A stretch of 35,383 nucleotides of DNA, taken from assembly GCA_041678125.1 (NCBI GenBank), contig JBAYOS010000001.1, forward strand, positions 1 through 35,383, written 5' to 3'. The DNA is from Monoglobales bacterium (GTDB taxonomy: Bacteria; Bacillota; Clostridia; RUG12999). Shown piece by piece: positions 4,941 to 28,140 of this stretch; position 1 is the first letter of the stretch; every line of letters begins with the position of its first letter. The translations under genes were made by a program, and so were the position numbers. The notes below the pieces were generated by a model. That model had not been told where the DNA came from and ran no database searches. It saw only the letters and a program-made list of their open reading frames with translations.

Positions 4941-5128
4941 TCCCTTTTGTCTTGATACAAAAGGGACAAAAAATCAAGACTGCGCCCGCTTCGCTCAAAA
5001 AATTAGTCGCTTACAGGCTAAAATCCTTAAACTCGTTTCTCCCTCCGGTCGAAACTCAAACAGTAAGTCTTTTTACGCCTGTTTCACTCCATTTTTCGGC
5101 TCACCGGACGAGGTCAGAGGAAGAGAGC
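4941..5128 (+). repeat. Repeat family A, copy 1. It lacks the 5' GGGGC..GCCCC hairpin present in the other copies.
   Basis: Aligns with 25674-25886 and 27927-28140. Shared blocks are AAAAAATCAAGnCTnCGCCCGCTTCGCTC.AAAAATT and ATTTTTCGGCTCACCGGACGAGG, plus two hairpins with compensatory changes. Confidence 0.85.
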
Positions 5129-5161
5129 GTTCATTACGGTTGTTCTCATTTTTCGTGATTG

Positions 5162-5437
5162 TTAAGTTACTTTTTGTTTGTTTTTGTTGAGTAATTTTTC
5201 TATGTCGTTGAGGTTGTAGTACATAGTTCCGCCGATTTTGGTGTAGGGCAAAGTGCCGTTTATCCGCAGGGTTTGAAGTGTACCGGGAGAAATGTTGAGT
5301 AGTTTTCGGACTTCGGCGGATTTGAGCCATTTTTTAGTGGTTATATCCTTTTGATTGTTTAGGATGGTACGAATGTCTTCGAGTAGTTGTGTTTTGAATT
5401 CGTACAGGTCGTCGAGGGTAATGATTTGTGCTGACAT
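5162..5437 (-). CDS. Excisionase/MerR-type helix-turn-helix DNA-binding protein
   Basis: WLKSAEVRKLLNISPGTLQTLRINGTLPYTKIGGTMYYNLNDIEKLL is the HTH_17-type motif common in Bacteroides Xis-like proteins. Confidence 0.7.
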   Translation of the reverse strand: MSAQIITLDDLYEFKTQLLEDIRTILNNQKDITTKKWLKSAEVRKLLNISPGTLQTLRINGTLPYTKIGGTMYYNLNDIEKLLNKNKQKVT

Positions 5438-5507
5438 AATGATATTTACGATTTTAAAATTTACGATTTACTATTTTTTTAGAACACGGATTAACACGGA
5501 TTTTTTG

Positions 5508-5540
5508 ATAAAGCCAATAAGGACTGTAAAGTCGGTAAGG
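5508..5540. repeat. Four RTAARG units phased at 9 bp (5508, 5517, 5526, 5535)
   Basis: Read directly from the sequence. Confidence 0.8.
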
Positions 5541-5558
5541 TCTTTTGGTTGTTGTTGT

Positions 5559-6092
5559 TTATTGATAATCTAAGGCTCGGTTGAACCAACCGTAGAGGTA
5601 TTTTTGATTGCTTGGCCGTTTTTTGATAATGGAGAGGTAGTGCGATATTTTGGCAAGGGTAAAGGCTGACAAAAAGTGGTTTGGATTGAAGACGTTGAGT
5701 TTTTCGAGCGTTTGTGGGCCTATAATTCCATCGACATCTGCTCCAATAATGTTTTGGGCTAAACGGACACTGGTTTTGATTCCGGCGTTTATAGCAAAAT
5801 CGAAAACGGAATCCGCAACAGCTTGGGTTTCTATTTTATCGGCGTTGAGTGGTTGCCAATAATTGGCATAATAGAATTGTTCGATTTGTTGTTGTAGTTC
5901 GGTGTTTTGGTCGAGTGTTTTGGGGAAATTTTCTTTGGTTTTGTAATTGTCGATTGTTGCCCAGCCTGACCAAGTGGGATGTGCTGCGCGGGAAATGCCT
6001 TTGTAGGTTTCGCCGCCTGAATCATCGGGGTCGTGAACGTAGCCACCTTCGTGAAGTAAGGTTTTGTGAAGTGCGAATTTAAAGTTTGCCAT
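5559..6092 (-). CDS. GH108 N-acetylmuramidase with C-terminal peptidoglycan-binding domain
   Basis: LHEGGYVHDPDDSGGETYKGISR matches the GH108 signature. DGIIGPQTLEKL matches the PG_binding_3-type segment. Confidence 0.8.
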   Translation of the reverse strand: MANFKFALHKTLLHEGGYVHDPDDSGGETYKGISRAAHPTWSGWATIDNYKTKENFPKTLDQNTELQQQIEQFYYANYWQPLNADKIETQAVADSVFDFAINAGIKTSVRLAQNIIGADVDGIIGPQTLEKLNVFNPNHFLSAFTLAKISHYLSIIKKRPSNQKYLYGWFNRALDYQ

Positions 6093-6125
6093 GATTTTTT
6101 GATTTGCTATTATAAGTTTACCATT

Positions 6126-6158
6126 TTAAAGACCGTAAGGTCTGTAAAGCCTATAAGG
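6126..6158. repeat. Four (R/T)TAARG units phased at 9 bp (6126, 6135, 6144, 6153)
   Basis: Read directly from the sequence. Confidence 0.8.
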
Positions 6159-6220
6159 TTATTGTATTGACTTATGTTTTTGTTTGCATGACAAAGTTGG
6201 TGGGTTTATTCGGAATATTT

Positions 6221-6245
6221 TCCCAATGTGTTCCACATGTGGAAT
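6221..6245. promoter_or_regulatory. 25-bp box with a perfect 14-bp palindrome core TTCCACATGTGGAA (6231-6244). A second copy lies at 6546-6570.
   Basis: tcccaatgtgttccacatgtggaat versus tcccaaggtgttccacatgtggaat, 24 of 25 identical. Confidence 0.6.
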
Positions 6246-6269
6246 GAGTTTTTTGAGTTAAAAATTGTA

Positions 6270-6307
6270 AATAGAAAAAACATACTTATTTGTATGTTTT
6301 TTCTATT
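6270..6307 (-). terminator. 16-bp hairpin spanning the rteC stop codon
   Basis: aatagaaaaaacatac (6270-6285) pairs with gtatgttttttctatt (6292-6307). The loop contains the TAA stop. There is no strong T-tract. Confidence 0.45.
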
Positions 6308-7125
6308 CTTCGAAGAAGCGATTTTTTCAAATCATCCAAAAATTGAGTTGGATTCTTACGCCTTTTAATATCTTGCAAATCACGATATATGCTGTCTTTG
6401 ATTTCTATGTCGAATAAAATACCCAAGGCTTCGGAAAGTTCGTTTATTTCGCATTTTCCGTTGTTGATTGCTCCCGAATCGGCAAGCGAATAAGTAAGTT
6501 CTTCCAGCTCAATTTTAGTTCCCGTCCACTTGAATTTACCCAAAATCCCAAGGTGTTCCACATGTGGAATTCGGGATTTCAACGCAATTTTTTCAATTTC
6601 GAAATTCAGATAGGTTTCCAATTGGTCGTAAGCAATTATTTTTGCGATGGTATAATCGTGAATTGTTGAGAAATCTTCATCGAAATCCGTACTATCTATT
6701 TTCTGAGTCAAATCCAGCCTCCTGCGAACAAAATATTTGTCGTCCAAATGAGTTGAGCGCATTCGATAATATTGATAAAACTCTTTATGCTCGTTAAAGA
6801 AGAATGTCAGTTTTTTCAAACGCTGCCTCAAGTATTTTTCTTGTTCCTCATGGCAACCAACCGGACGGAGGCTTTCGATTTTCGTCATCTTTCTGTGATA
6901 GATATGCTTGCTCTGCAAATCGGGCTTCAACTTTTTGAAAAAAAGGATTTCCTCTTCTTCATTTTCAAAGGTGTATTCCAAAAGAAATGCCTTGAGTTCG
7001 TTCAAGGCATTTTTCACATAAGCTAAAGATTCCAATGATTTATCTATAATGTTGTGTGTTTGTAATTCAACGGTTTGTAATTGAGCCGCTAATTTATTGT
7101 TTAGGTCAGCAATAAAATTTTGCAT
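6286..7125 (-). CDS. rteC: RteC-family regulator
   Basis: Family-typical blocks LFFKKLKPDL.SK.IY, FYQYYR and DDKYFVRRR, at about 280 aa. Confidence 0.8.
   Translation of the reverse strand: MQNFIADLNNKLAAQLQTVELQTHNIIDKSLESLAYVKNALNELKAFLLEYTFENEEEEILFFKKLKPDLQSKHIYHRKMTKIESLRPVGCHEEQEKYLRQRLKKLTFFFNEHKEFYQYYRMRSTHLDDKYFVRRRLDLTQKIDSTDFDEDFSTIHDYTIAKIIAYDQLETYLNFEIEKIALKSRIPHVEHLGILGKFKWTGTKIELEELTYSLADSGAINNGKCEINELSEALGILFDIEIKDSIYRDLQDIKRRKNPTQFLDDLKKSLLRRIEKTYK
6546..6570. promoter_or_regulatory. Second copy of the TTCCACATGTGGAA box, inside the rteC coding sequence (it encodes ..IPHVEHLGILG..)
   Basis: Same 25-mer as at 6221-6245. It is additionally nested in the outer arms aaatccc/gggattt. 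Confidence 0.6.
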
Positions 7126-7265
7126 TCGGACTTCAGGTTATTATGGCAATTATTTTTGTTTAAGTAAGTTTCTTAGTAATATTCAAAAAATAAGTTTCCT
7201 ATTTTTGAACGCAAAGGCTCGAAGTCGCGAAGGCTTTTTCTTGATTATTTTTAATTTAAGAACGC

Positions 7266-7294
7266 GAAGAAAAAATTCCGATAAATCGGAATTT
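7266..7294 (-). terminator. Intrinsic terminator-like hairpin followed by a T-tract on the minus strand
   Basis: The stem attccga/tcggaat can be extended by A:T pairs. The minus strand then reads TTTTTTC after the stem. It lies between the PUL and rteC. Confidence 0.5.
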
Positions 7295-7542
7295 CCCTTT
7301 CCGTCTTAGTTTATAATTATTGTTTTCTTCGTGTTTTAAATTCGATAACTTATTTTTTAAACGTTACTTAGTTTATTATTTCGACACATGGGTTCTCATA
7401 AAAAATCAATGAATTTAGTCGTTTTGCACGATTCGGCAGTTATCATACTGAACTTGATTCAATACAAAACAAGTTTTAGTTCTCTTCTTGCTGCTTAGTC
7501 ATAGAATTCACACTATAATTTTAGGTATCTATGAGTAAAACT

Positions 7543-7567
7543 AAGGCGGGATTAAACATCCCGCCTT
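7543..7567 (-). terminator. Intrinsic terminator-like hairpin downstream of the T9SS-sorted protein gene
   Basis: aaggcggga/tcccgcctt forms a 9-bp GC-rich stem with a 7-nt loop. The minus strand continues AGTTTTAC. Confidence 0.55.
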
Positions 7568-7599
7568 ATACAAAAAAGCGACCGTCTTTCGACCTGCTT

Positions 7600-9051
7600 T
7601 TATTTACAGAGAACTATTGAAGTCGTTTTTTCTCCGGCTTGTTTTACCGATATAATATAACTTCCTGCTGTAGGCAATGTCGTTGTAAATGTATTGGTAG
7701 GACTGGTTTCTGATGCTATTAAACGACCTGCAATATCGAACACCGAAATTTCGGCATTTATTTCCAAATCGACAATATTCAACTCGCGTCCGAATACAAA
7801 TAGAGTGTAATTTTTATCTGTCGGATTGCAACATACCGTAGAAATAGAAGTTACTTTTTCAATTCTAAAATAGCGGACATCTTTATTGAAATACATTTTT
7901 GCATTATCTTCAGAATCTATGCTCAACTTTCGCCCGGCAGAGGCGCCGTTCACATAAATATTAAAATTGAAATAATGTGTGTCGTCTATGGTGGTTGCAT
8001 ATTCAGCTACGATAGTTGTATAATCATTGTCAGTTAATTCAACCCAATCGCTTAAATACAATCCCGAACCTGCATTTTTAAGTCTGTATTCATCCACAGC
8101 TCCTCCTTCTTTCGGCTCCAGGTTCCATTTTTCATAATTACTGCCGCTTACCGCATCAACTCTTTCCAACCTACGTCCTTCTTGTGCATCTTTCAGATAC
8201 TGCAATCCGGTTCCATCTTCTTTTATCAACCTGACATAATATAATTCACCCTCTTCCGCGTTTAACTTTGGAATTAATACCGCAGCTAAATAGTTTTTGA
8301 TTGCAGTATCTAAGGCGCTAATTGCAGCTTCATCAACATTGCCATTGGCAAGTATGTCTTTTGCATTCGTTATCGCGTCATGTAAATCAGCCTTGGCGCT
8401 TGGGGGATATTTTCCCGGATTACTATTCGCCATATCCTCCTCGGTCGCCGTGTTGTTTTCGTCGTAATAGGCTTTGGCGGACCGGATTAATTGTTCCAAA
8501 TTATCAGAAAGAGTAAAGACCGCCTCAATTCTAAAGTAACGGACTCCTTTGTTGAAATACATATCTGCATTATCTTCAGAATCTATGCTCAGCTTTCGCC
8601 CGGCAGAGGAGCCGTTCACATAAATATTAAAATTGAAATAATGTGTGTCGTCTATGGTGGTTGCATATTCAGCTACGATAGTTGTTACATTGTTATCAGA
8701 CAATCCAACCCAATCGTGCAAATACAATTCAGAACCGACATTTTTAAGCCTGTATTCATCGACAGCACCTCCTTCTTTCGGCTCTAAGTACCACATCTCA
8801 TAATCGTTTTTGGGGTCGGCGCTTACCTCATCGACCCGTTTTAACCTGCGTCCTTCCTTTCCGTCTATCAAATACTGCAAGCCGGTTCCATCTTCTTTTA
8901 TCAATCTGACATAATACTTTATTCCGGATTCCGCGTTTAATATCGGATTAGGATCTTCTGCCATTGCTTTAGCACATAAATCTTCCGCCATCACATTGGC
9001 ACATAACAATACGCATAGCGCACATACTAAAAAAGAATAAATACGTTTCAT
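7600..9051 (-). CDS. Secreted protein with two about 140-aa repeated modules, a helical linker and a T9SS (Por) C-terminal sorting domain. Possibly glycan-binding.
   Basis: It has a signal peptide. Modules at aa 39-178 and aa 264-400 are near-identical. The C-terminal ..ISVFDIAGRLIA....LPTAGSYIISVKQAGEKTTSIVLCK resembles the T9SS type A CTD. Confidence 0.6.
   Translation of the reverse strand: MKRIYSFLVCALCVLLCANVMAEDLCAKAMAEDPNPILNAESGIKYYVRLIKEDGTGLQYLIDGKEGRRLKRVDEVSADPKNDYEMWYLEPKEGGAVDEYRLKNVGSELYLHDWVGLSDNNVTTIVAEYATTIDDTHYFNFNIYVNGSSAGRKLSIDSEDNADMYFNKGVRYFRIEAVFTLSDNLEQLIRSAKAYYDENNTATEEDMANSNPGKYPPSAKADLHDAITNAKDILANGNVDEAAISALDTAIKNYLAAVLIPKLNAEEGELYYVRLIKEDGTGLQYLKDAQEGRRLERVDAVSGSNYEKWNLEPKEGGAVDEYRLKNAGSGLYLSDWVELTDNDYTTIVAEYATTIDDTHYFNFNIYVNGASAGRKLSIDSEDNAKMYFNKDVRYFRIEKVTSISTVCCNPTDKNYTLFVFGRELNIVDLEINAEISVFDIAGRLIASETSPTNTFTTTLPTAGSYIISVKQAGEKTTSIVLCK
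7852..8937. repeat. Intragenic tandem duplication (units 7852-8262 and 8518-8937, period 666-675 bp) with a block of about 110 bp that is almost identical at the DNA level
   Basis: For example, cgcccggcag occurs at 7931 and 8597, and gccgttcacataaatattaaaattgaaataatgtgtgtcgtctatggtggttgcatattcagctacgatagttgt is shared by both units. Confidence 0.85.
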
Positions 9052-9127
9052 AATAATAAAAATTAAATTGTTAATAATAAAAAAGAATTAAAAAATTGAA
9101 GTTGTTGTTGTTAGATTAATACTCTTG

Positions 9128-11113
9128 TTATATTTTGTATATTTTCATCACATATCCACCACCGGACACCATAACGATTTTCAGTTTTTTATCCGCCGGA
9201 ATATCTATTGTTTCTTTTTTGTAATCTTTTGCCGCTTTACCGGCATTAATCCCATCTTTAAAAACTTCGGCTTTAAAATTACCCTCGCCCAAAAACGACA
9301 AATCTATTTCCAGTTCCCGTGCATCCCAATTCGTCAGCGAGCCTACATACCAGTCGCTTCCGCTTTTACGGGCTATAGTAATGTATTCGCCTACTTTTCC
9401 ATTCAAGGATCTACTTTCATCCCAAACAGTCGGGACATCTGCGATAAAACGGGTACATTCTTCTTCCGATTCGTAATTCGACGGGCTGTCGCATAACATA
9501 TTCAACGGCGATTCGAAAATAATGTATTGAGCCAACTGACGACAGCGCGTTCCCTGACTCATAGCTTCGTTGTAAACAGGGCGATAATTGCCTTTTGCCG
9601 CGTTGCGCATGGCTCCTTGCGTGTAATCTATCGGGCCTGCGACTTGGCGAATAAATGGAATCATCACATCGTAAGTTACCTGATCGATATCGGCGCCTAC
9701 CCATTTCATTTGCTCTAATCCGTGTACACCTTCGAAATTGATTACATTCGGATATGTACGCTGCAATCCGGTTGGTTTATATGTTCCGTGATAATCAATC
9801 AGCATTTTGTATTTGGCTCCTATTTCGGCGCCACGATGGTGGAAATCGACCATTATTTGATCATCCCTGTCCATGAAATCGACTTTGAAACCTTTTATCC
9901 CCATTTCGCTGTAATGTTTGCAGACTGCCTCCAAATCTCTGTCGAAAGCCCAATATCCTGCCCAAAGAATTAAACCGACATTCTTTTTCTCCGCGTAAGC
10001 AACCAAGCCGGGTAAGTCGATTTCAGGTATGACCTGAAATAAATCGGCTTTTTTGTTTACCGCCCAACCTTCGTCCAAAATCACGTATTCGATTCCGTAT
10101 TTCGAAGCAAAATCAATGTAATATTTATAGGTTTCATTATTAATTCCTGTTTTGAAATCCACATTGTACAGATTCCAGTCGTTCCACCAATCCCACGCCA
10201 CTTTGCCCGGCTTTACCCACGAATAATCTCCTTCGGCCGGCGCCGCCAGTTTGTAAACCATATCGTTGTCGGCTAATTCCGCATCATTTTCAACTACGAT
10301 AACCGCACGCCAAGGAAAAGCGATTCCTTTTTCGAATTTGGCGATATAATCCTCACGCGATTTCACGAGCATCTGCAGATTGTTGTGCCCACCCTGCTCC
10401 ATGTCTTTCGGATATGTGGCAAAAACGCCTTTCAGCGCGGTATTCCCGTCTCCGTTGTACAGATACATGCCGGGATAATCCAACAAGTCGGCTTCTGCCA
10501 GACAAACTTTTTTGCCGTTCGGTCTTTCCACCAGCAAGGGGGTAAAAGCCAACCTGCTTTTGTCCCAATCGGATAATTTCAAGTAAGCGTATGTGTTTTC
10601 AAAAGAATTGAAAAATTGAGCGGTCAAACTTTGTGTGTTCTGGCACACATACGGCACATATATTTTCGGGTTATCCGGAAAATTGAATTCCGCTTGTTCC
10701 GATTTTACCCGGAACGGTTTTTTCTGTGTGGAAACAAAACGATAAGCAATTCCATCGTCGTAAGCGCGGAAAATAATGTTGTAATTGCCTTTGAACTTCA
10801 GTATTAATTCGTTGTAGCAGTTATTAACAATGTTTCTTTTATAAATTTGCGTTTTGATCTGCTCATCAACGGAGTTTTTTGCCACACTTGTCAGGCGGGG
10901 ATCGACACCCCATTGCGTACCATCGGACAATGTCATGGATATAGGCGATTTTCCCAACATTAAATCTCCTGCGTGCGTTATCTGATATTCAATGGTTTTA
11001 TCAACCGAAATTTCAACTTTCAATTTACCGCTTGGAGCAGTCAATGAATAGTCTTTTTGTGCGAACAATCCGATTGGAAGTAAAATAAATGCGATTAGTT
11101 TAATAAGTTTCAT
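9128..11113 (-). CDS. GH97 glycoside hydrolase (alpha-glucosidase/alpha-galactosidase family, SusB-like)
   Basis: Blocks GIEYVILDEGW and GIKGFKVDFMDRDDQ. The start is moved to MKLIKLIAFILLPIGLFAQ (signal peptide); the track's extra 13 codons come from repeat B. Confidence 0.85.
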   Translation of the reverse strand: MKLIKLIAFILLPIGLFAQKDYSLTAPSGKLKVEISVDKTIEYQITHAGDLMLGKSPISMTLSDGTQWGVDPRLTSVAKNSVDEQIKTQIYKRNIVNNCYNELILKFKGNYNIIFRAYDDGIAYRFVSTQKKPFRVKSEQAEFNFPDNPKIYVPYVCQNTQSLTAQFFNSFENTYAYLKLSDWDKSRLAFTPLLVERPNGKKVCLAEADLLDYPGMYLYNGDGNTALKGVFATYPKDMEQGGHNNLQMLVKSREDYIAKFEKGIAFPWRAVIVVENDAELADNDMVYKLAAPAEGDYSWVKPGKVAWDWWNDWNLYNVDFKTGINNETYKYYIDFASKYGIEYVILDEGWAVNKKADLFQVIPEIDLPGLVAYAEKKNVGLILWAGYWAFDRDLEAVCKHYSEMGIKGFKVDFMDRDDQIMVDFHHRGAEIGAKYKMLIDYHGTYKPTGLQRTYPNVINFEGVHGLEQMKWVGADIDQVTYDVMIPFIRQVAGPIDYTQGAMRNAAKGNYRPVYNEAMSQGTRCRQLAQYIIFESPLNMLCDSPSNYESEEECTRFIADVPTVWDESRSLNGKVGEYITIARKSGSDWYVGSLTNWDARELEIDLSFLGEGNFKAEVFKDGINAGKAAKDYKKETIDIPADKKLKIVMVSGGGYVMKIYKI

Positions 11114-11132
11114 GTGTTTAAAAATTATAATA

Positions 11133-11237
11133 GCCTCCCTAAATCCCCCCAACCCCTATCCCCTTCGGGACTTCCCCCACAAGAGGGAAGAAAAAGGAAT
11201 AAAAGTTTTTGGGGACTTGCAAACTTGCTAAGGCTTC
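11133..11237 (+). repeat. Repeat family B, copy 1 (C/G-tract palindromic unit)
   Basis: Aligns with 27029-27128 and more loosely with 25287-25395. The outer stem is ccccaa/ttgggg and the inner stem is cttccc..gggaag. Confidence 0.75.
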
Positions 11238-11284
11238 AATTACTATTGTTTTTTTATCTTTTTATTTAATCATTAATTAGAAAG

Positions 11285-15885
<4,601 letters not shown>

Positions 15886-16808: not shown

Positions 16809-18362
16809 TTACAATTTAGCGCATACCTTATCGCCCGCCTTTACTTTTACTTCAACATAAGAGATTTTGTTACCTATCCTGTCGGTTTCCTGTGAAGTGG
16901 TTTCGTATTTTCCGTTAACATTAATCCGGTTGTGGACACCAGTGAAAGCCGCTTTCCAGATTAATTCATTTTTTGTATTATTGGTAAATTCGGTGTAGGT
17001 GTTTCCTTCGTGGCGCACCGTTACATGACCTCCCAATACAGCCACATCTTCCATTTCGGCATAATCTTTATTTGTGGGAAGCTGCGGCATGGTAGTAAGA
17101 GTATTTTTTGAAGCACTTGGGACAATGCCCATAAGACCGCTTACAAGCGCCTCGATGGCTGCGTATGATACTTCAGGATATTCATTTCGGTACATGGTCA
17201 AGAAACTGTACAAATCATCATAAGCCTTCTCCGACCATTGGCAGCGGTATCTCATCAGCGGCAAGTATGAACATCCTTCGGCATTCATCCACGATATTGC
17301 CTCAAGGCATCTCTTAGCTCGGTCGGGCTCATGAACGGCGTCCACCCATAAAACAGCCGAGCGAGCAGTTACCGGGCGTTTGCCGTCATCGCTTATAAAT
17401 CCGGTTCCATTCAATCCGTCTTCGTCTCGGTAATACTTCCCAAGCATATACATGTTTATATCGGTATTCCACCATTCGTCATGCAGCAAGTCATAATATT
17501 CCCGGGCTTTTTTTGTTGCTTCTTCTGCTTTTTTTGTCTCTCCGTTGTGACGCAGGATATTGCTGTATGCCGTAAAACCGGCATAGGCGTAAGCTACCAA
17601 GTCGCTGCCGACCCCAATAGATTTTGCTCCATAATCATCTTCATGAGAACCTTTAAGTTCATCGTACGAAGGTAATCCTCGCGCCGACTTGAACCAATCT
17701 CTCGTTTCAGGATGGTTGTTCAGATATTGGGTGCGATTCATAATTCTGTCCGGCTCAAGCTGCCATTTTTTGATATATTCATCAAACGATCTGTCGAAGA
17801 AATACAGCATTGTGGGATCTTCTATGTATCTTTTGTCGCCTGTCCATTCGTACAGACGCCAACTGGAAAAAGCCATATCAAAGTTGGCGGGAAGATTGTA
17901 CCAAAAATTCGCGTCACTTTTATAATCTGCAGGACAAGCGCCCCCTGTTTTGTCTATTTCCCAGTAGGTACACCAATCTTTCGATTCCGAAATATTCTCG
18001 GCGAAGCGGTATGTCATATTCCAGTTATGTTTCGAAAGGCCAAGCGGTTCTGCACCAAGAGCTTGATGCAACATGTCGCGTACGGCAAAAGCATCCCGGC
18101 CGGGGAGAGCGGCCTCTATCCAATAACCTACTGGGTCGGTACCATCATGGGCATAACTCAACGCCATTCTCCGCGCCCAATGAAACACTCGCTCAAGATT
18201 TTTATCTGAAGAGCTAAAAGCTATATTTCGGGAAGTTTCTTCAGTCCCGGAACCGGATTGTTCTTGCTCTAATTCTCCAGAAGGAGAACAAGCAAGAGAA
18301 ATAGAAAAAAACAAAGCAATTGCAATTACCATTTTACTCATATTTTTATTATTAATTGTCAT
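16809..18362 (-). CDS. Lipoprotein of unassigned family, paralogue of 14386..15885
   Basis: Lipobox ..SLACS (the true start may be the internal MSKMV at 18341). Shared blocks are ALSYAH.G.DPVGYW.EAALPGRDAFA.RD, NFWYNLPANF, WRLYEWTGD.RYI, FDEYIKKWQLEP, YPEVSY and GNKISYVEVKV. Confidence 0.5.
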   Translation of the reverse strand: MTINNKNMSKMVIAIALFFSISLACSPSGELEQEQSGSGTEETSRNIAFSSSDKNLERVFHWARRMALSYAHDGTDPVGYWIEAALPGRDAFAVRDMLHQALGAEPLGLSKHNWNMTYRFAENISESKDWCTYWEIDKTGGACPADYKSDANFWYNLPANFDMAFSSWRLYEWTGDKRYIEDPTMLYFFDRSFDEYIKKWQLEPDRIMNRTQYLNNHPETRDWFKSARGLPSYDELKGSHEDDYGAKSIGVGSDLVAYAYAGFTAYSNILRHNGETKKAEEATKKAREYYDLLHDEWWNTDINMYMLGKYYRDEDGLNGTGFISDDGKRPVTARSAVLWVDAVHEPDRAKRCLEAISWMNAEGCSYLPLMRYRCQWSEKAYDDLYSFLTMYRNEYPEVSYAAIEALVSGLMGIVPSASKNTLTTMPQLPTNKDYAEMEDVAVLGGHVTVRHEGNTYTEFTNNTKNELIWKAAFTGVHNRINVNGKYETTSQETDRIGNKISYVEVKVKAGDKVCAKL

Positions 18363-18458
18363 TATATTGTATTTTTGTTAAATTTTGATGTTGACTTAAT
18401 TCAGAAAGGGAACTTTCTACTTTATCCGAAGATTTCCATTCGGATAAACATTATTATT

Positions 18459-21839: not shown

Positions 21840-21851
21840 AAGTTGTAATTG

Positions 21852-24800
21852 TTAGAAATTTAATTGTACACCAAGATTAAATGTTCGTTGCAAAGGATAC
21901 GAATTCCAGCTGAGTTCAGGATCCCAATGTTTGAATGGACTGAATACGAATAGATTGTCTCCGTTGAGAAATACGCGTCCATATTTAAACCTATATCCGA
22001 TTTCAAGTGTTTTGAAACGGAGAAAATTTCCATTTCTCATCCAATATGTACTTGCAACCTGATTGTTTTTGGTATCGGTATCGTTCAGCCCGAGCCTTGG
22101 ATATTGAGCATTTGCATTTTGGTTCGACTCAGCCCAATGATCATCCGCAATGAATTGGAAAATATTATGGTCATGTTGTCCGAAGGGATGAATATTTTGA
22201 ATCATAATCCTGCGCATGGCTGAACCATTGAAAAAGACTCCAACATCAAATTTTTTCCATGTGAGAGTTGTGCCGAACCCGTATTGTATGCGCGGTTGTG
22301 TACCGAGATTGGAAATATAAGCTTGATCGTATTCGTTGATAACCCCATCACCGTTTAGATCGCGGTATTTGATGTCGCCTACCATGGGTGTGCTTCCGAG
22401 TTCCTGCCGTGCATGGTTGTCAATCTCGTCCTGATTAGTAAAAAGTCCTTCGGCGACATAGCCATACATTGTACTAAGAGGACGTCCTGTTTCCACCAAC
22501 CAAGGGTACGGATGTTCTATTTCATCTTTAAACACATATTTGTTTTGCGTGTAGGTAAAGTTACCACGTATATCCAAGGTCAGGTCTTTTGCCAGTCGCG
22601 CCGTATAGTTGGAGCTTACTTCATATCCCCAATTATTTACCTTGCCTATGTTGCTCCAAGGCATCGCGCTTCTGTAACCAAAGGAATTAGGCCATGTAGC
22701 ACGTTCCATAAGTATATTGTAACGATGTTCATGAAAATAGTCGAATGTAAGATGCCAATCCTTGAATAAAAAAATATCCAAACCAATATCGAGTTTTCTG
22801 GAACGTTCCCAGCCCGCTCCGGAAACCGGATAACGATTAATAGTCGGTCCGCCTTTCCATACATTCCATTCGTCGCCTGTTGTAAAACCGCGGTTTGCCA
22901 AGGTTACATTTTCTATGTATAAGAAGCGCGATGGATATGTAAGGTCGTCGCTTCCTATCAATCCATACGAAGCTCGCAACTTCAAATGCGTTACCATTTC
23001 ATTGATTGGAACGAAGAAATTTTCGTTGCTGACTACCCAACCCAACGATACTGCCGGAAAGAGTTCAAACCTGTTGTCTTTGTCAAGGCGTTCCGTTCCA
23101 TTGTAACCGAAGTTGACTTCGGCGAGATAACGCTGATCATAGTCGTAGGTAAAACGGCCGGAAATTCCTTGATTGCGTTCGGGAAGTACATTGCTTTTGT
23201 AATCACGCTGCATATACATCAACATACCACCTACATTGTGCAGTCCGAAGCGACGGTCGTACGCCAATTGAAACTGCATCATTATGGTGCGGTCGCCCGT
23301 TTTGGATATATTCGATTGAGAGATATAGTCTGTTCCTTCTTTCAGCAATTCGGTTTCAAATGTATTTTTATCGGGGTCGTAGCTTCCGCTTCTTACCCGG
23401 TAATAATAGGGTTCTATCGTTTGATTATATGAACTGTGAGAATAATTCTTAAAGTTGATTAATGCGTTGATGCTTAATCCAGAGGTTATGAATTTTAAAT
23501 CTTGGTCTATTTTAAGCGATGTGTTGATTGTGTTGATATCAGCTTGCTTAAATGAAGAAGCCATGTATGCATAAGGATTTGTACGCAAGTTTTGATTAGA
23601 AGTAAATGGCGCGCTTCCGAAACGCCTGTAAGTATCTCCCTCCGCCGCCGGGAAATAAGCCGGAAAATATACGGGATTAGTCGTCAACATCATACCGAAA
23701 AGTTCGCTTGTTGAATAGTTAGGCCCTTTGTTGTCGCGCACCTGCGCATTCATATTTAGGCGTATCTTGGTTGTAGGCGTGACTGTAATCTGAATATTAT
23801 TTTGGAAATTGTACGACATATTGTTGATGTTGTTATTCCAAGAATACAATTTTGGGGAATTGAGCAAACCCGCATCGTGGCTAACGTTAAGGCTTGTGTA
23901 ATAGGTAACTTTTGAGCCACCACCCTGTATATTGATATTGGCGCGTTGGCTCATAGCCATGTTTTTAAAAATGAGGCTGCGCCAATCAACATCCGGATAA
24001 ACATAAGGATTTATCCCATCGCGTGTAGCTAGAATATCATCTGTCGTATATTTAGGAACAGCATTGGGGTTGCGTGTGGTTTGTGCTTCCACATACATCC
24101 CCATCCAAGTAGCTCCGTCCGTAAATTCAGGAAAATTTACCGGTTTACTGAACGAATTTTCCAATGTAATATTGATATTTGTTTTGGTATTTTCCCTTCC
24201 TCTTTTGGTCGTAACCAACATCACTCCGTTGGCGCCACGCGCACCATAAATAGCTGTAGCCGAAGCGTCTTTCAATACAGAGAACGATTCTATGGTTTCT
24301 GCCGGAATATTATTCAGGTCTTCAGCCGAAATTTCTACATCATCCAGAATAATAAGCGGAGTAGTACGTCCTCCAAAAGTAGAAATACCGCGAATATAAA
24401 ACTGTGATGCCGATCCAGGCTCTCCACTGGTAGTATTGGCTATTACTCCCGCCAAACGCCCCGCGATGTTGTTGGTCAGCGAAGAGCTGGGATAACTCAA
24501 ACTCGAACCTTTTATCGTAGCGATTGAACCAGTAACGGAAACTTTCTTTTGAGTTCCTGCACCAACAACCACAAGTTCTTCCAACGCATTTTCGGATTTC
24601 AGTTTGATTTCGATAAATCCAAGGTCGCCAACCAATATTTCCCTGGTTTTGTATCCAATATAAGATATTTGCAGGATAGAGGAGCTTTCTACTTGTAATG
24701 AAAAATTACCTTCCAAATCGGTTGATACACCTGTATCTTCACCTTTTATCATTACATTGGCACCGATTAATGGGGTATTGTCTGAAATGTCTATTACTTT

Positions 24801-25160
24801 TCCTTTTAATCCCCGTTTTTGTTGCGGAGAAGCGTTTTCTTTAGAAGCAGGAGGTGTAGGAGCAGATATGATTACGTGCGATTTGTTAAATTTATAAGTA
24901 TATCCTGTTTCTTTAAATAACAAATCAAAGACTTTACTTACTTTGTTTGATTTTGGAAGAGATTTTATTTTATGATTTACATCAACACTGGAATCATAAT
25001 CAATCGATAAGCCTGTTTGTTTTTCGATTTGTTCAAATGCCGTCTTTAATGTAATGTTATCGCCTATTAATGTTACCATTTGCTCCTGTGCCATCAGGTT
25101 TAAAGGAGATAACATTACGGACAAAATAAATAGTAATGTGTAAATGATTTTTTTGTTCAT
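21852..25160 (-). CDS. SusC/RagA-family TonB-dependent transporter with an N-terminal STN signalling domain and a carboxypeptidase-regulatory-like domain
   Basis: The STN-like block is ITLKTAFEQIEKQTGLSIDYD..KVFDLLFKETGYTYKF. The CarbopepD_reg-like block is LKGKVIDISDNTPLIGANVMIKG..TDLEGNFSL. It is 1102 aa with the terminal ..FNLGVQLNF. Confidence 0.9.
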   Translation of the reverse strand: MNKKIIYTLLFILSVMLSPLNLMAQEQMVTLIGDNITLKTAFEQIEKQTGLSIDYDSSVDVNHKIKSLPKSNKVSKVFDLLFKETGYTYKFNKSHVIISAPTPPASKENASPQQKRGLKGKVIDISDNTPLIGANVMIKGEDTGVSTDLEGNFSLQVESSSILQISYIGYKTREILVGDLGFIEIKLKSENALEELVVVGAGTQKKVSVTGSIATIKGSSLSYPSSSLTNNIAGRLAGVIANTTSGEPGSASQFYIRGISTFGGRTTPLIILDDVEISAEDLNNIPAETIESFSVLKDASATAIYGARGANGVMLVTTKRGRENTKTNINITLENSFSKPVNFPEFTDGATWMGMYVEAQTTRNPNAVPKYTTDDILATRDGINPYVYPDVDWRSLIFKNMAMSQRANINIQGGGSKVTYYTSLNVSHDAGLLNSPKLYSWNNNINNMSYNFQNNIQITVTPTTKIRLNMNAQVRDNKGPNYSTSELFGMMLTTNPVYFPAYFPAAEGDTYRRFGSAPFTSNQNLRTNPYAYMASSFKQADINTINTSLKIDQDLKFITSGLSINALINFKNYSHSSYNQTIEPYYYRVRSGSYDPDKNTFETELLKEGTDYISQSNISKTGDRTIMMQFQLAYDRRFGLHNVGGMLMYMQRDYKSNVLPERNQGISGRFTYDYDQRYLAEVNFGYNGTERLDKDNRFELFPAVSLGWVVSNENFFVPINEMVTHLKLRASYGLIGSDDLTYPSRFLYIENVTLANRGFTTGDEWNVWKGGPTINRYPVSGAGWERSRKLDIGLDIFLFKDWHLTFDYFHEHRYNILMERATWPNSFGYRSAMPWSNIGKVNNWGYEVSSNYTARLAKDLTLDIRGNFTYTQNKYVFKDEIEHPYPWLVETGRPLSTMYGYVAEGLFTNQDEIDNHARQELGSTPMVGDIKYRDLNGDGVINEYDQAYISNLGTQPRIQYGFGTTLTWKKFDVGVFFNGSAMRRIMIQNIHPFGQHDHNIFQFIADDHWAESNQNANAQYPRLGLNDTDTKNNQVASTYWMRNGNFLRFKTLEIGYRFKYGRVFLNGDNLFVFSPFKHWDPELSWNSYPLQRTFNLGVQLNF

Positions 25161-25286
25161 GATATAAGAATTATATTATTAAAAAGTCAATACAATTTTG
25201 TTTGATTTATTCAGAAATTCCTATAAATCAAAAGCTCATTGTTTTTTATCCATCCCTGATATTTTCCATATTCGTTTCAATTAAGA

Positions 25287-25395
25287 AGCCCCTCCAAACC
25301 TCAAGCCCCCTCTAATTCTTGGCTTTGCCAAGCGCGTAGCGTTACCTCCACAAGGGGAGAACTCGAAGTTTCTGAAATTTTCTGAGGCTTTTGTT
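25287..25395 (+). repeat. Repeat family B, copy 2 (divergent)
   Basis: It shares cccc..caaacc..cccc, ..ctccacaaggggag.. and ..ctgaggctttt with B1 and B3. The central cttcggg is replaced by the hairpin cttggctttgccaag. Confidence 0.55.
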
Positions 25396-25673
25396 AGACT
25401 TAATACAATTAACTAAACAACACCTTTTTTATACCTTTTAATATAGAATGATAGTTTGATTTTTATCCTTCATATTATAAAGTAAGTTTAAACGCAATTT
25501 ACACACAGTCCAATCATTCATTTTTTTCATTTTTATTTGATTTTGTATTCTTGAATAGTTTCAAAAAGGATAATTTTGCATTGATTTTGAATGATTTGGT
25601 TGTTTTTTCTGCAAAATAAAAAATATTTGATTTGGATATAAAAATCTAATAAAGATTTCTATAATCATTTTAA

Positions 25674-25886
25674 GGGGCTTTGCCCCTGTAACCCCACTTC
25701 ATTTTTTGCCTTGACGCAAAAAACGAAGCAAAAAAAGTCAAGACTACGCCCGCTTCGCTCGAAAAATTGGCGTTCGTTGGCTAAAATTCTCAAACTCGCT
25801 CCTTTGTCGCTCAAACAGTGAGTATTTTTTACGCCAACTTCACTGATTTTTCGGCTCACCGGACGAGGTCGGTCGCTAAAGAGGGA
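25674..25886 (+). repeat. Repeat family A, copy 2 (full length)
   Basis: See 4941-5128. Hairpin 1 spans 25697-25728. The basal helix of hairpin 2 is gttggc (25776-81) pairing with gccaac (25833-38). Confidence 0.85.
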
Positions 25887-25986
25887 CATCACAATGAAAC
25901 CGAGTCAAGAATATCAGATATTTATAAATAAAAAACCGCCGGACTTCTTAGCCTGACGGTTCGTTAAAATCAAATTAATCAACTTC

Positions 25987-26964
25987 TTATCTGAAGTGGA
26001 AATACACTTTCGAATTTTCTATTTGGTAGTCCGATTTGTCAATTAATATGGTCAAGACATCCATCGCATCCTGTAACGATTCATCGGGGTTGAATTTTAC
26101 ATAATAAGCCTGCTGGTTGATTTTTCCATCGTAATTAATTTCAACATTGTATTTCCGCTCAAGTGTTTGCACAATTTCATCGAAGCTCGCACCTTGGAAA
26201 ATCAGATAGCCATCTTCCCAAGAGGCCAACCTAACCGCATCGACATCAATAACGGATACTTCATTATTGCTATGCAAATAAACAAGCTGGTTGTTGGGTT
26301 TCAAAATGTACGCCTCATTCTCGGCCAAATTTATATCCACCTTTATACTGCCTTCTATCAACGTGGCTTTTGTGTATTGCGTGTTTGGATACGATTGCAC
26401 ATAAAATTTCGTTCCCAATGCCTCTATGTCGATATGTTGCGTTTTTACAATGAACGGTTTGTCGGGGTTTTTCGCTACGCTGAAATTGGCTTCGCCTGTG
26501 AGGAAAACGGTTCGGGTGTCGGCTGTGAATTTTTCGGGATAAATGAGTGTTGATCCCGCATTCACCGCAACGACCGTTCCATCCGAAAGCGTGATTTTTT
26601 TACTTTCGCCATACGAAACAGAAACCTGTGTGTATTCCAACGGCGCGGGAACAGCGACTTTGTAAGTTATATAAACCGTGCTTGCAATGAGCAGTGCAAG
26701 AATGGCGGCATAAGACGCGATTTTGAGAAAAACATTTTTCTTTTTCGGTTTGTCGCCGATACGGTGTTCTATTTTCTCCAAATCGTCCCAAGTTTGTTCG
26801 CTTACCACAGACGGACTATTTTCCCAAATATCTTTCATAGCTTCATCTTTTTCAGCCTGATTTTCGTCCAATCGAAACCATTTGGCGAAAAGAGACTGGG
26901 TTTTCCCCGAAGCTTCTTTTTCGAAAAAAGTCCGTACCGTATTTTTTACTTCATTATTGTTCAT
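25987..26964 (-). CDS. FecR-family anti-sigma factor (transmembrane sensor)
   Basis: 325 aa with a single TM segment (ASYAAILALLIASTVYITY). It has FecR-like and C-terminal DUF4974-like blocks and is paired with the ECF sigma and the STN-SusC. Confidence 0.8.
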   Translation of the reverse strand: MNNNEVKNTVRTFFEKEASGKTQSLFAKWFRLDENQAEKDEAMKDIWENSPSVVSEQTWDDLEKIEHRIGDKPKKKNVFLKIASYAAILALLIASTVYITYKVAVPAPLEYTQVSVSYGESKKITLSDGTVVAVNAGSTLIYPEKFTADTRTVFLTGEANFSVAKNPDKPFIVKTQHIDIEALGTKFYVQSYPNTQYTKATLIEGSIKVDINLAENEAYILKPNNQLVYLHSNNEVSVIDVDAVRLASWEDGYLIFQGASFDEIVQTLERKYNVEINYDGKINQQAYYVKFNPDESLQDAMDVLTILIDKSDYQIENSKVYFHFR

Positions 26965-27028
26965 AAATACCTATTTATAATATAGTAAGCAAACGCGCCG
27001 TTTACACACAAATAAAATTTTAAAAAAC

Positions 27029-27128
27029 ACCCCAAACCCCGACCTCTATCCCCCTTCGGGTACTTTCTCCAAAGGAGAAAGGAAAAGGAAAATAGATTTT
27101 GGGGCTTACAAACTATCTGAGGATTTTG
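27029..27128 (+). repeat. Repeat family B, copy 3, inserted between the sigma and anti-sigma genes
   Basis: The outer stem is ccccaaa (27030-36) pairing with ttttgggg (27097-104). The inner 8-bp stem is ctttctcc/ggagaaag (27063-81). Confidence 0.75.
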
Positions 27129-27185
27129 TTTGCATTCTTTTAATCATCTTCCTGTGTGAGAATTGTTTATCACGGGTGTTTCATA

Positions 27186-27740
27186 TTAATAAAAAAACAT
27201 GATAAATATTTTTACCACTTTCCTGAGTTCGGCCAATGCCGAGGTCAAATGATTTTCGACCGTGCGTTTGTTTATATTTAATTTTTCGGCTATTTCTGCA
27301 TTCGAAAGTCCTTCGACACGGCTCATCATATATACTTGTTTGCGTTGAGGTGGCATTTGGCTTACCGCAATGTCAATCATACATTGAAGCTGATTTGCAA
27401 AAACAAGTTCTTCCGTGCTTTCCGTGTGCGACGGCTTTTTCAGTTGTTCGGCTACAAATTTCTCATTTACAATCAAATGGTCGTAATAATTGCACACGGA
27501 ATTTTTCGCCATTTTGAAAATGTAGGCTTGAAAAGATTTGACTTCGGATAGTTTATTCCTGTCGTTCCAAATGCTTAGAAAAATATCCTGCGCCATGTCC
27601 CGCGCCAATTCATCGTTTTTAATGAATCCCTTCAGAAAATGCACCAATTTGGGCTGGTAATACAGAAAAAGCAACTCAAAGGCCTTCTGGTCGCCCCGAC
27701 TCAATGCTTTTATATATGTTATTTCAATTGTATTATCCAT
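27186..27740 (-). CDS. ECF-type RNA polymerase sigma-70 factor (Bacteroides expansion type)
   Basis: 184 aa, with a region 2 block (DMAQDIFLSIW) and a region 4 HTH (LSNAEIAEKLNINKRTVENHL). Confidence 0.85.
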   Translation of the reverse strand: MDNTIEITYIKALSRGDQKAFELLFLYYQPKLVHFLKGFIKNDELARDMAQDIFLSIWNDRNKLSEVKSFQAYIFKMAKNSVCNYYDHLIVNEKFVAEQLKKPSHTESTEELVFANQLQCMIDIAVSQMPPQRKQVYMMSRVEGLSNAEIAEKLNINKRTVENHLTSALAELRKVVKIFIMFFY

Positions 27741-27926
27741 TTGTTTATTAAAGTTTTATGATATACTCAAAAACTTTGTTTGGCGAAAGATTAAATCGTG
27801 AAAAAGGGAATTTCAAAAATACAATAAATTGTCTTTCCGTCAAGCAAAGATAGTTGATATATTTTTTAGAATAAAAATTTGTGGGGGCATTTCAAGTTGG
27901 CGTTTATTTGAAAACGTTTTTCCAAA

Positions 27927-28140
27927 GGGGCTGTCCGCCCCTGTAACCCCGACTTACTTTTTTCCTTGGATGAAAAAAGTAAGCAAAAAAATCAAGGCTA
28001 CGCCCGCTTCGCTCGAAAAATTGGCGTTCGCCGACTGAAATCCTCAAACTCGCTCCTTACGTCGCTCAAACAGTGAGGATTTCTTACGTCGGCTTTACTG
28101 ATTTTTCGGCTCACCGGACGAGGCCGTCCGATTAAGAGAG
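27927..28140 (+). repeat. Repeat family A, copy 3 (full length), ending 10 bp from the integrase stop codon
   Basis: Hairpin 1 spans 27953-27983. The basal helix of hairpin 2 is gccgac (28030-35) pairing with gtcggc (28088-93). Confidence 0.85.

Follow-up and report, generated by a model that had tools for sequence, protein, structure and literature searches.

A dispersed non-coding module of environmental Bacteroidia with a conserved, covarying fold and a possible role at transcript 3' ends

The window analysed here, a DNA stretch of 35,383 nucleotides, contains three copies of a non-coding module of about 200-235 nt, all of them intergenic, as a sequence-only reading had stated, and each directly downstream of a co-directional gene. 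Copy 1, in the RteC/HTH_17 region of the window, starts 26 nt past the stop of an HTH_17 gene (5162-5437) and is flanked by this gene and a 310-aa open reading frame. The label of 'replication gene' for the 310-aa frame is unverified, because this frame has no Pfam match. Copy 2 occupies the susC upstream region, as proposed: it lies between a FecR anti-sigma gene and a SusC-like open reading frame, about 100 nt past the stop of the former and its terminator-like hairpin (25933-25965) and about 500 nt upstream of the SusC-like start (25160). Copy 3 is the one described as lying just beyond an integrase, 5-10 nt past the stop (28150) of a tyrosine integrase (28150-29394; Arm-DNA-bind_5, SAM_5 and Phage_integrase domains) and about 185 nt upstream of an ECF sigma start (27740). 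One window copy lies inside a PUL, and the placements in the window include both a PUL and an integrative element.

In the window, each of the two conserved blocks of the module has exactly three occurrences, every one on the plus strand; shuffled sequences are expected to contain none. A repeat finder returned the same three copies (its families D3, D5, D7 and D11), and the covariance-model matches agree within a few bases with the three co-oriented copies delimited in the sequence-only reading. The copies and their parts are:

4938-5135, minus strand: copy 1 (covariance-model match 4921-5135, 158 bits, E 8.6e-38)
4941-4966, minus strand: hairpin 1 of copy 1, 10 bp; loop 4951-4956 complementary to 4973-4980 (GUCUUGAU)
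4984-5109, minus strand: rod of copy 1 (P1 5091-5109/4984-5003; P2 5077-5083/5012-5018; P3 5064-5072/5021-5029)
about 5036-5054, minus strand: P4 apical hairpin of copy 1
25671-25890, minus strand: copy 2, complete (covariance-model match, 207 bits)
25674-25686, minus strand: terminal hairpin of copy 2, GGGGC-AAA-GCCCC, a separable module
25697-25728, minus strand: hairpin 1 of copy 2, 13 bp including one G.U; loop 25710-25715 complementary to CUUGAC within 25737-25744
25730-25736, minus strand: U7 linker of copy 2
25748-25864, minus strand: rod P1-P4 of copy 2 (P1 25846-25864/25748-25767; P2 25833-25839/25775-25781; P3 25819-25827/25784-25792)
27924-28145, minus strand: copy 3, complete (covariance-model match, 176 bits; model span as given)
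27927-27941, minus strand: terminal hairpin of copy 3, GGGGC-GGACA-GCCCC
27952-27984, minus strand: hairpin 1 of copy 3; loop AUCCAAGG complementary, with one bulge, to GCCUUGAU at 27991-27998
28002-28119, minus strand: rod P1-P4 of copy 3 (P1 28101-28119/28002-28021; P2 28088-28094/28029-28035; P3 28074-28082/28038-28046)

We found that these copies belong to an extensive non-coding family, so far undescribed, that is dispersed through environmental Bacteroidia. Exact 19-mer matches place the family in at least 118 genome stretches, and a covariance model built from relatives gave 100 matches in 704 kb; the sample studied comprises 100 stretches (the window and 99 further loci) with at least 100 copies. 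Carriers include Paludibacter, Prolixibacteraceae, Maribellus and related genomes, with dozens of copies per genome at non-orthologous sites, and loop and junction sequences stay conserved from one order of Bacteroidia to another. Truncation and internal deletion of copies are common in the family, as are insertions of foreign repeats and tandem duplication of one module. The earlier statement that no known RNA family could be named agrees with Rfam 15, in which no family matched any part of the window at gathering thresholds; an E-value threshold of 10 yielded only chance-level matches, the best on the element reaching 18.9 bits where the gathering score is 45. Searches of plasmids, phages and the literature revealed no counterpart of the module, and we found no description of a REP/ERIC-type system in Bacteroidota in the literature searched.

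The module folds on the minus strand of the window, whereas the sequence-only reading had written it on the other one. From 5' to 3', the fold comprises a short 5' hairpin, a rod of about 125 nt (P1-P4), a U-tract, an A/U-rich hairpin of 13 bp (hairpin 1) and often a GGGGC hairpin, which is unrelated to the 5' hairpin. Copies 2 and 3 carry this additional GGGGC...GCCCC hairpin; it is absent from copy 1, which consists of the 5' extension, the rod, the U-tract and hairpin 1. Within the rod, conserved strands pair across two internal loops, each with tandem G-A/A-G juxtapositions. The stems quoted earlier are all present, both those of hairpin 1 (tcccttttg/caaaaggga in copy 1 and the two other versions) and the basal helix (acaggc/gcctgt, gttggc/gccaac and gccgac/gtcggc in copies 1, 2 and 3). 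Other elements required reinterpretation: the conserved blocks taken for unpaired pair with each other and constitute helix P1, the supposed conserved loop (aactcg/ctcaaacag) surrounds the further, variable hairpin P4 as an internal loop, and the 'bulged C' is a junction residue that never varies and reads G on the folding strand.

Covariation across the larger alignment is strong. Paired cells amount to 94.3% in the structure-fitted alignment compared with 80.2% in shuffles, controls with slid partners drop to 38-49% (38-50% over both alignments), and 56 of the 64 pairs show double changes. None of 500 shuffles reached the observed value on any of five measures in two alignments made differently; a MAFFT-only alignment gave the same picture, and RNAalifold recovered P1, hairpin 1 and the terminal hairpin unaided. 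Even the conserved blocks compensate in divergent copies (GUCCG/CGGGC to GCCUG/CAGGC; G-C to A-U). The folding strand is evident from the asymmetry of wobble pairs (371 G.U versus 33 A.C cells) and from model scores, which are about 40 bits on the reverse strand as opposed to 115-230 bits. Selection on a folded single strand, as suggested from three copies, is thereby upheld in both types of alignment, and neutrally decaying duplicates with compensatory changes arising by chance are refuted by the shuffle and slid-partner controls; nothing beyond the small sample of the first reading spoke for them, and their probability is negligible.

The loop of hairpin 1 pairs with a CUUGAN motif just upstream of the U-tract, forming either a pseudoknot or an alternative helix, and this contact covaries: among 61 copies, the position is C:G in 32, U:A in 12, A:U in 11, U.G in three and mismatched in three. 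The U-tract sits 5' of the A/U-rich stem, and the U-run of the linker equals the stem run plus one in four length classes; in the Maribellus subfamily the linker is UUUUGUG. Downstream of the GGGGC hairpin, the sequence is a mixture of A and U without a clear U-tract. We rejected an intrinsic (Rho-independent) terminator, given the A/U-rich hairpin 1 with its U-tract on the 5' side and the lack of a clear U-tract at the GGGGC hairpin.

In other genomes, the module often resides inside small transposons, namely two unrelated MITE shells termed type A and type B. One shell type has terminal inverted repeats of 22-24 bp and a 9-bp target duplication; of about 13 genuine type A elements there, 10 have flanks that agree in at least 7 of 9 bases, compared with 2% of random pairs, and type B shows a probable TA duplication. 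The module itself is a discrete unit: its ends are sharp, and neither terminal inverted repeats nor a target-site duplication belong to it. Copies from different shells cease to be similar at the module ends, split or partial model matches were confined to locus ends, and inverted repeats of many different sequences flank the module. In relatives, these repeats lie 10-60 nt outside the module, so that its ends do not coincide with them, contrary to the boundaries expected of a known MITE. The link to MITEs raised earlier is real but indirect: it concerns the shells elsewhere, whereas the window copies are naked, and allowing 3 mismatches revealed neither a type A nor a type B inverted repeat beside them. 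A DDE-type MITE was rejected for these copies, as their ends carry no terminal inverted repeats and target duplications surround only the shells elsewhere. REP/REPIN-RAYT elements were likewise dismissed: apart from CGAAAAA, the two P1 strands do not represent one unit and its reverse complement, and no Y1/HUH protein is among the matches listed for the neighbours. We identified no mobilising enzyme, protein partner or promoter for the module.

One copy could be followed into RNA. In metatranscriptome run X21, a contig of 100% identity covers 4940-5539 and is continuous from the upstream HTH gene through copy 1; precisely at 4940, the base that follows the foot of hairpin 1, it passes into Illumina adapter sequence. 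RNA coverage in this run is absent at 4902-4939 and a new contig begins at 4901, whereas DNA depth in the same sample is flat. Since this evidence comes from one copy in one unstranded contig set, position 4940 could also be the 5' end of an antisense RNA, although the minus strand is probably the one transcribed. In RNA runs, the k-mer depth of the element lies far above that of its flanks, a value confounded by the multicopy nature of these k-mers. By copy number, covariation, strand asymmetry and the co-transcription of one copy, the module is a transcribed, structured intergenic repeat of the ERIC/BOX kind. Among the options left by the sequence-only reading, a role in RNA gains support from this transcript and its discrete end at hairpin 1. 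This RNA end lies at the foot of a hairpin that does not have the make-up of an intrinsic terminator.

Our preferred reading, to which we assign a probability of roughly 0.45, is that of a dispersed folded module that spreads as a unit, is transcribed as 3' UTR and forms or protects mRNA 3' ends. The module would spread partly as cargo in at least two unrelated MITE shells. Wherever it lies downstream of a co-directional gene, as do the three window copies, it would be transcribed as the 3' UTR of this gene, and it may then set or protect the 3' end of the transcript at the base of the A/U-rich hairpin. REP/BIME, ERIC, BOX and Correia repeats act on transcript 3' ends in the same mode, and 3'-end formation or protection would be the function under selection. 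Against this reading stand the single unstranded RNA record, two hairpins without the make-up of a canonical terminator, the negative result for promoter, protein partner and mobilising enzyme, and two further aspects. A third of the copies oppose their neighbours (17, versus 33 co-directional with both), so that a purely cis-acting 3'-UTR role cannot account for every copy, and a simple exonuclease barrier would need nothing like the elaboration of the 125-nt rod with its conserved loops and pseudoknot.

Such elaboration, together with loop and junction sequences conserved across orders and the occurrence in both orientations, would suit a multicopy family of trans-acting sRNAs, in which each copy is an sRNA gene (about 220 nt) driven by a separate promoter within the AT-rich 5' flank and acts through conserved single-stranded segments or protein binding, like FopS and GibS in Bacteroides. 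Multicopy sRNA families do occur in this genus (PMC11697453), and the high k-mer depth of the element points in the same direction, confounded as it is. This alternative predicts primary 5' ends upstream of CCUCGUCCGG and a discrete RNA of about 220 nt; yet no TAnnTTTG-type promoter lies at a fixed distance from the module, the only informative RNA contig runs on from the upstream gene, and truncated, internally deleted, repeat-interrupted and tandem copies are common. We consider it unlikely. A selfish element whose fold acts only as single-stranded DNA, needed by a hairpin-recognising enzyme (IS200/IS605 TnpA, a RAYT-like HUH protein or a hairpin-targeting recombinase) to copy it into palindromes such as MITE centres, is similarly improbable. 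It would explain the sharp ends without repeats or duplications, the strand-specific folding with G.T tolerated, the non-orthologous sites and the varied flanking inverted repeats, as expected for insertion into pre-existing palindromes, and the gene-orientation bias would fit exposure on the lagging-strand template. However, the 70 upstream neighbours scanned include no transposase, TnpB, RAYT or reverse transcriptase among the matches listed, the hairpins at the two ends do not resemble one another, neither an empty shell nor an empty site turned up, and the Rfam IS605-orfB families do not match. Moreover, the fold is a constrained 200 nt with a loop-to-strand tertiary pair, where known single-stranded DNA transposons need hairpins of only 20-30 nt.

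The recombination or integration target considered earlier, that is, att/attC-like sites for the integrase at 28150-29394 or for the RteC/Xis-type element of the window, derives its appeal from the co-oriented copies, of which copy 3 adjoins the integrase stop and copy 1 lies in the RteC/HTH_17 region. At about 70 other loci, the neighbours are random housekeeping genes, with no integrase among the families listed, and this gene context effectively refutes the proposal. Dozens of copies per genome, a window without a tRNA gene or att-like context and the RNA-like pseudoknot also speak against it, and it is very improbable.

The preferred reading places the module beside several known systems. 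ERIC/IRU, REP-BIME, BOX and RUP, simple imperfect palindromes 35-127 nt long, are intergenic repeats that are transcribed in Enterobacteria and Streptococcus. The module resembles them as a multicopy, intergenic, modular or mosaic repeat that is transcribed with its neighbours and forms RNA hairpins, and it may similarly affect mRNA 3' ends or stability; it differs in its multi-helix architecture of about 200-235 nt, in which a loop-to-strand contact covaries and the internal loops are conserved, and it comes from a different phylum without any sequence relation. The Correia/NEMIS elements of Neisseria are MITEs co-transcribed with genes, whose terminal inverted repeats form a hairpin that is processed in RNA. 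The type B shell resembles them by its probable TA duplication, but the module is an interior cargo, independent of inverted repeats and common to two unrelated shells. IS200/IS605 PATEs and TnpB omega-RNAs also lack terminal inverted repeats and target duplications of their own and fold on one strand, and omega-RNA scaffolds contain pseudoknots. The module shares these traits, but we rejected this class because no transposase family (tnpA or tnpB) is among the matches listed for its neighbours, its end hairpins are dissimilar and unrelated, and Rfam gave no match (IS605-orfB-I, -II).

Pseudoknots with U.A-U triples occur in telomerase RNA and SAM-II, and ENE/MALAT1 elements are 3'-end triple helices. 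Like these structures, the module has a U-tract beside a U-run/A-run stem, an A-rich strand at the observed RNA 3' end and a linker that tracks the stem run. In a conceivable but quite unlikely reading, the A-rich 3' end is capped by a pseudoknot with major-groove U.A-U triples, built from the U-tract, the A/U-rich hairpin and the covarying loop contact. This bacterial counterpart of ENE/MALAT1 would be seated on a conserved rod that binds protein and would travel as cargo of unrelated MITEs. The triplex is a candidate whose geometry works only if the stem top opens, and the UUUUGUG linker is better explained by alternative Watson-Crick pairing. In a variant of this idea, the end at the hairpin foot may be made by self-cleavage of a new ribozyme.

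In Bacteroidota, MITEPgRS of Porphyromonas gingivalis is a MITE with the BrickBuilt internal repeat as its distinct cargo (PMC4596501). That cargo is a tandem minisatellite, in contrast to the folded and structurally selected module. The FopS/GibS sRNAs of Bacteroides thetaiotaomicron are a further multicopy non-coding family of this phylum and are tied to PUL (SusC) regulation, which recalls the window copy within a PUL (PMC11697453). FopS RNAs measure 65-70 nt and have sigma-ABfr promoters and a conserved 5' seed (R1') (PMC11697453); the module differs in length (about 220 nt) and architecture, has no fixed promoter and occurs at many more sites.

If the preferred reading is correct, a mobile RNA module whose tertiary fold is defined is present in environmental Bacteroidia at dozens of copies per genome and would rewire mRNA 3' ends wherever it inserts, here including a PUL and an integrative element. 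With about 60 covarying pairs and a pseudoknot, the family offers Rfam a new and well-supported RNA motif, as well as a case of one structured cargo in two unrelated MITE shells, and cultured carriers (Maribellus luteus XSD2, Maribellus sp. CM-23 and Paludibacter spp.) allow direct testing. For annotation, the family also accounts for recurrent spurious open reading frames and for assembly breaks, since contigs from the landfill and wastewater metagenomes end inside the module.

We find that the non-coding repeat of about 200-235 nt present in three copies in the window (~4938-5135, 25671-25890 and 27924-28145) is a new structured interspersed module, whose fold is conserved on the minus strand together with a covarying tertiary or alternative contact. 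The three copies claimed by the sequence-only reading are present: the conserved blocks TTTTTCGGCTCACCGGACGAGG and CGCCCGCTTCGCTCRAAAAATT each occur three times, on the plus strand and at no other site (0 occurrences are expected in shuffled sequence), a repeat finder run on the window recovers the identical three copies, and the stems quoted in that reading are found in the sequence. Copies 2 and 3 have in common an extra GGGGC...GCCCC hairpin at the left. No tRNA genes were found in the window; the annotated genes around the copies are as follows.

Genes in the vicinity of the three copies
3917-4849, minus strand: 310-aa ORF without a Pfam hit
5162-5437, minus strand: HTH_17 protein
5559-6092, minus strand: GH108 lysozyme
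6286-7125, minus strand: RteC
21852-25160, minus strand: SusC-like ORF
25987-26964, minus strand: FecR anti-sigma factor
27186-27740, minus strand: ECF sigma factor
28150-29394, minus strand: tyrosine integrase

A canonical terminator-like hairpin with a U-tract (25933-25965, minus strand) directly follows the FecR gene, upstream of copy 2, so that copy 2 is located past an ordinary terminator.

Selection on a folded strand, the main inference of the sequence-only reading, stands on covariation in two alignments, which we read on the reverse complement of its text. Helix P1, which closes a long rod, is formed by the two conserved blocks (GUCCG.U..GC.CGAAAAAY with RUUUUUCG.GC..A.CGGGC), which had been described as unpaired and in fact pair with each other. 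P2 corresponds to the basal helix of the earlier description and P3 to AAAUCGUCC/GGACGAUUU and variants; the loop placed there earlier needs correction, as UGUUUGAG/(C)GAGUUU is an internal loop next after P3, followed by P4, a variable apical hairpin ranging from nearly absent to about 60 nt. Standard pairs fill 94.3% of cells in the model-fitted alignment of 97 distinct copies versus 80.2% in 500 shuffles, sliding the partners by 1-3 columns lowers pairing to 38-49%, and both sides have changed in 56 of 64 pairs. A MAFFT alignment of 36 sequences without structure fitting gives 93.8% versus 85.9% shuffled, and 39-50% with slid partners, and RNAalifold alone independently recovers P1, hairpin 1 (the A/U-rich hairpin 3' of the U-tract) and the terminal GGGGC hairpin. 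In divergent copies, compensation extends even to the conserved blocks (GUCCG/CGGGC to GCCUG/CAGGC, and G-C to A-U in GCCGAAAAA). The strand had been taken the wrong way round: the folding strand is the minus strand, with 371 G.U cells versus 33 A.C cells, an A.C here being a G.U on the other strand. Covariance-model scores are 115-230 bits for the proper strand and about 40 bits for the opposite one, and the window copies are 12-16 kcal/mol more stable when folded on the minus strand. A 5' hairpin, P0, using CCUCGUCCGG in differing registers, is hinted at by a slightly lower mean folding energy (-5.9 versus -5.1 kcal/mol, p = 4e-4). In one copy from another genome (L007, 4656-4888), the internal loop carries on its 3' side the reverse complement of its 5' side (CTCAAACAAGG) in place of the usual sequence; its rod is a perfect palindrome at the altered loop, and its opposite strand also scores a model hit.

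Hairpin 1 carries the loop sequence xUCAAG, the complement of CUUGAx just 3' of P1, and because the variable pair of this contact covaries (C:G 32, U:A 12, A:U 11, U.G 3 and mismatches 3 in 61 parseable copies), the alignments support a putative pseudoknot or alternative helix; the contact is also recovered as helix 7 in the MAFFT alignment. The U-run between CUUGAx and hairpin 1 equals the U/A run of the stem plus 1 in all 4 of 4 length classes (4, 5, 6 and 7), a match that could reflect major-groove U.A-U triples. Triple-helix geometry demands partial opening at the top of the hairpin 1 stem, and the linker of the Maribellus subfamily, UUUUGUG, is a better fit to alternative Watson-Crick pairing than to triples. 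Six loci (L037, L056, L060, L098, L104 and L109) carry a foreign repeat of ~70 nt between P1 and hairpin 1, consisting of CCCTCTCC..GGAGAGGG followed by GTCCG..CGGAC and GGGTGAGG; it belongs to another small repeat and deletes CUUGAC, the pseudoknot partner. Another locus, L043, shows tandem repetition of the hairpin 1 module.

The module belongs to a new and large family. The exact block-B 19-mer matched at least 118 stretches in a species-representative genome set, mostly in Paludibacter and other Paludibacteraceae, Prolixibacteraceae, Maribellus (isolates XSD2 and CM-23), Draconibacterium, Sunxiuqinia, Lentimicrobiaceae and unclassified Bacteroidales MAGs; the few matches in G+C-rich genomes are due to chance. 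From these loci, 72 full distinct copies were extracted, and the covariance model gave 100 hits in the window and 99 further loci, often several per 8 kb. In landfill and wastewater DNA metagenomes containing the window, k-mer depth over the conserved block exceeds that of single-copy flanks by factors of tens to hundreds, and contigs break within the element. The sequence-only reading could name no known RNA family, and Rfam 15 likewise yielded none at gathering thresholds, with chance-level matches only at E up to 10. Conserved sequence strings had no relevant match in full-text literature, and a phage or plasmid origin was rejected on 0 matches in IMG/VR, INPHARED and PLSDB. In Bacteroides thetaiotaomicron, the FopS sRNAs measure 65-70 nt and have promoters of their own (PMC11697453); the module differs from them in size and build, and on length and architecture a FopS identity is a poor fit.

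Copies of one core subfamily occur in varied surroundings, with similarity ending ~10-25 nt before CCUCG and directly past the GGGGC hairpin or, in one genome group, after hairpin 1. The module has discrete ends and a modular build, and is carried both naked and in two unrelated MITE shells, which recur among the many copies flanked by inverted repeats of unrelated sequence. The type A shell has 22-24-bp inverted repeats, ATGATTATCCGCAAAGCGACCTA and TAGGTCGCTTTGCGGATAATCAT (also written ATGATTATCCGCAAAGCGACC), and an AT-rich target duplication of ~9 bp: at least 7 of 9 flanking bases are identical in 10 of ~13 genuine elements versus 2% of random pairs. This shell also holds quite different interiors and an internally deleted core. 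The type B shell, about 345 bp long, has the inverted repeats (TTA)GTACATGACAAAAA and TTTTTGTCATGTAC(TAA) (also written TTAGTACATGACAAAAA) and a probable TA duplication; GTACATGAC, tried as a gene start, is a terminal inverted repeat of this shell. The MITE option of the sequence-only reading holds indirectly in other genomes, where the shells enclose the module; neither shell was found around the window copies, and copy 3 leaves no space for one because it starts 5 nt past the integrase stop. No empty sites or empty shells were found in four DNA metagenomes over the copy 2-3 region or in the fetched loci. Four type A shells with other interiors (L090 7201-7460, L113 1493-1644, L039 1208-1437 and L116 3972-4342) have the same 22-24-bp inverted repeats and target duplications of 8-9 bp, some interiors being hairpin-rich and one nested; several distinct cargos seem to travel in this shell family.

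The gene context of the module is random. A Pfam scan of 70 upstream neighbours matched 106 families, none common to more than 3 members; a link to genes for integrase, transposase, TnpB or reverse transcriptase was rejected, as none appeared among the 25 of 106 families listed. Orthologous loci amounted to four pairs or triplets only, and neighbours were both co-directional with the folding sense in 33 cases, both opposed in 17, convergent in 9 and divergent in 5. A small ORF that would stop at the conserved UGA of CCGGUGAGCC was rejected, since 10 of 72 copies have an ATG ORF of 10 aa or more in that frame, equal to other frames, and so was a fixed Bacteroidetes promoter upstream of the module, TAnnTTTG showing no positional peak.

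Among the possibilities raised earlier, that of an RNA gained support from a single transcript whose discrete end falls at hairpin 1 of copy 1, seen in unstranded contigs, as in all RNA runs. X21, a run labelled metatranscriptomic from the same sample as the DNA run X2, contains a 619-nt contig that is 100% identical to 4940-5539, spans copy 1, the HTH gene and further, and is joined at 4940 to TACACGACGCTCTTCCGAT, an Illumina adapter sequence. Read in the folding sense, position 4940 is one base past the foot of hairpin 1 on its 3' side. Between this contig and a second one spanning 4389-4901, positions 4902-4939 have no RNA coverage, and X2 DNA depth is flat over the same region (15-18). X21 shows zero depth across most of the unique sigma/anti-sigma interval (25948-27948), so its signal does not come from uniform carry-over of DNA. 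Read most simply, the transcript is a minus-strand operon mRNA that runs from GH108 through the HTH gene and ends at the hairpin 1 foot, with the next gene starting at ~4901; a rival reading places the start of an antisense RNA, instead of an mRNA end, at 4940. Sludge metatranscriptomes hold a related genome in which element depth exceeds that of the flanks, a difference confounded by shared k-mers, as is copy-level expression at locus L041. Contigs from digester metatranscriptomes share about 92-95% identity with the window within 27022-27797; they span the ECF sigma gene, skip 27120-27175 and end at 27776-27797, short of copy 3. If present in the digester relative, this copy is not part of the sigma 5' UTR.

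We infer a selected function at the RNA level. By analogy with REP/BIME, ERIC, BOX or Correia repeats, the module would set or protect mRNA 3' ends, and MITEs that carry it may be better tolerated. Its closest analogues are transcribed intergenic repeats of other phyla, from which it differs in being more elaborate and in moving as MITE cargo. A family of trans-acting sRNAs and a purely selfish element that requires its fold as single-stranded DNA are rival explanations to this role at mRNA 3' ends. That the copies act as att or attC-like sites of the nearby integrase is effectively excluded by the random gene context elsewhere and the absence of integrases among the listed upstream-neighbour families. 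Neutral decay of duplicates is effectively excluded as well: 0 of 500 shuffles reached the observed pairing in the model-fitted alignment, and 0 did so in the MAFFT alignment.

Several other repeats lie in the window. Short CGGATT/CGCAGATT-type repeats (cacggattacgcggattacacagatt) adjoin copy 1 at 4900-4935, and similar ones, in opposite relative orientation, adjoin family members upstream in L012, L041, L050 and L068; they look like a separate small repeat family. A 30-nt motif, TAAAGACCGTAAGGATTGTAAAGTCGATAA, is found in three copies, 83-87% identical (3864-3893, 5509-5538 and 6127-6156), each 19-70 nt upstream of a minus-strand gene start in the RteC region (a 204-aa AAA_23 ORF, HTH_17 and GH108), and may serve them as a common operator or promoter element. 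The 310-aa ORF and the HTH_17 gene have a 39-nt direct repeat, ATATTTACGATTT...TTTACGATTTACTATTTTTTT, directly before their start codons, 87% identical between 4855-4893 and 5442-5480. About 460 bp past the integrase start, a 52-bp palindrome (29852-29903; 26-nt arms, 85% complementary, without spacer) could mark the end of an element, an att site or a site of regulation. The 483-aa ORF at 7600-9051 contains internal duplications (7840-8138 with 8506-8804, and 8145-8272 with 8820-8947), and the PUL ORFs at 14386-15885 and 16809-18362 are paralogous, 15098-15574 matching 17530-18033.
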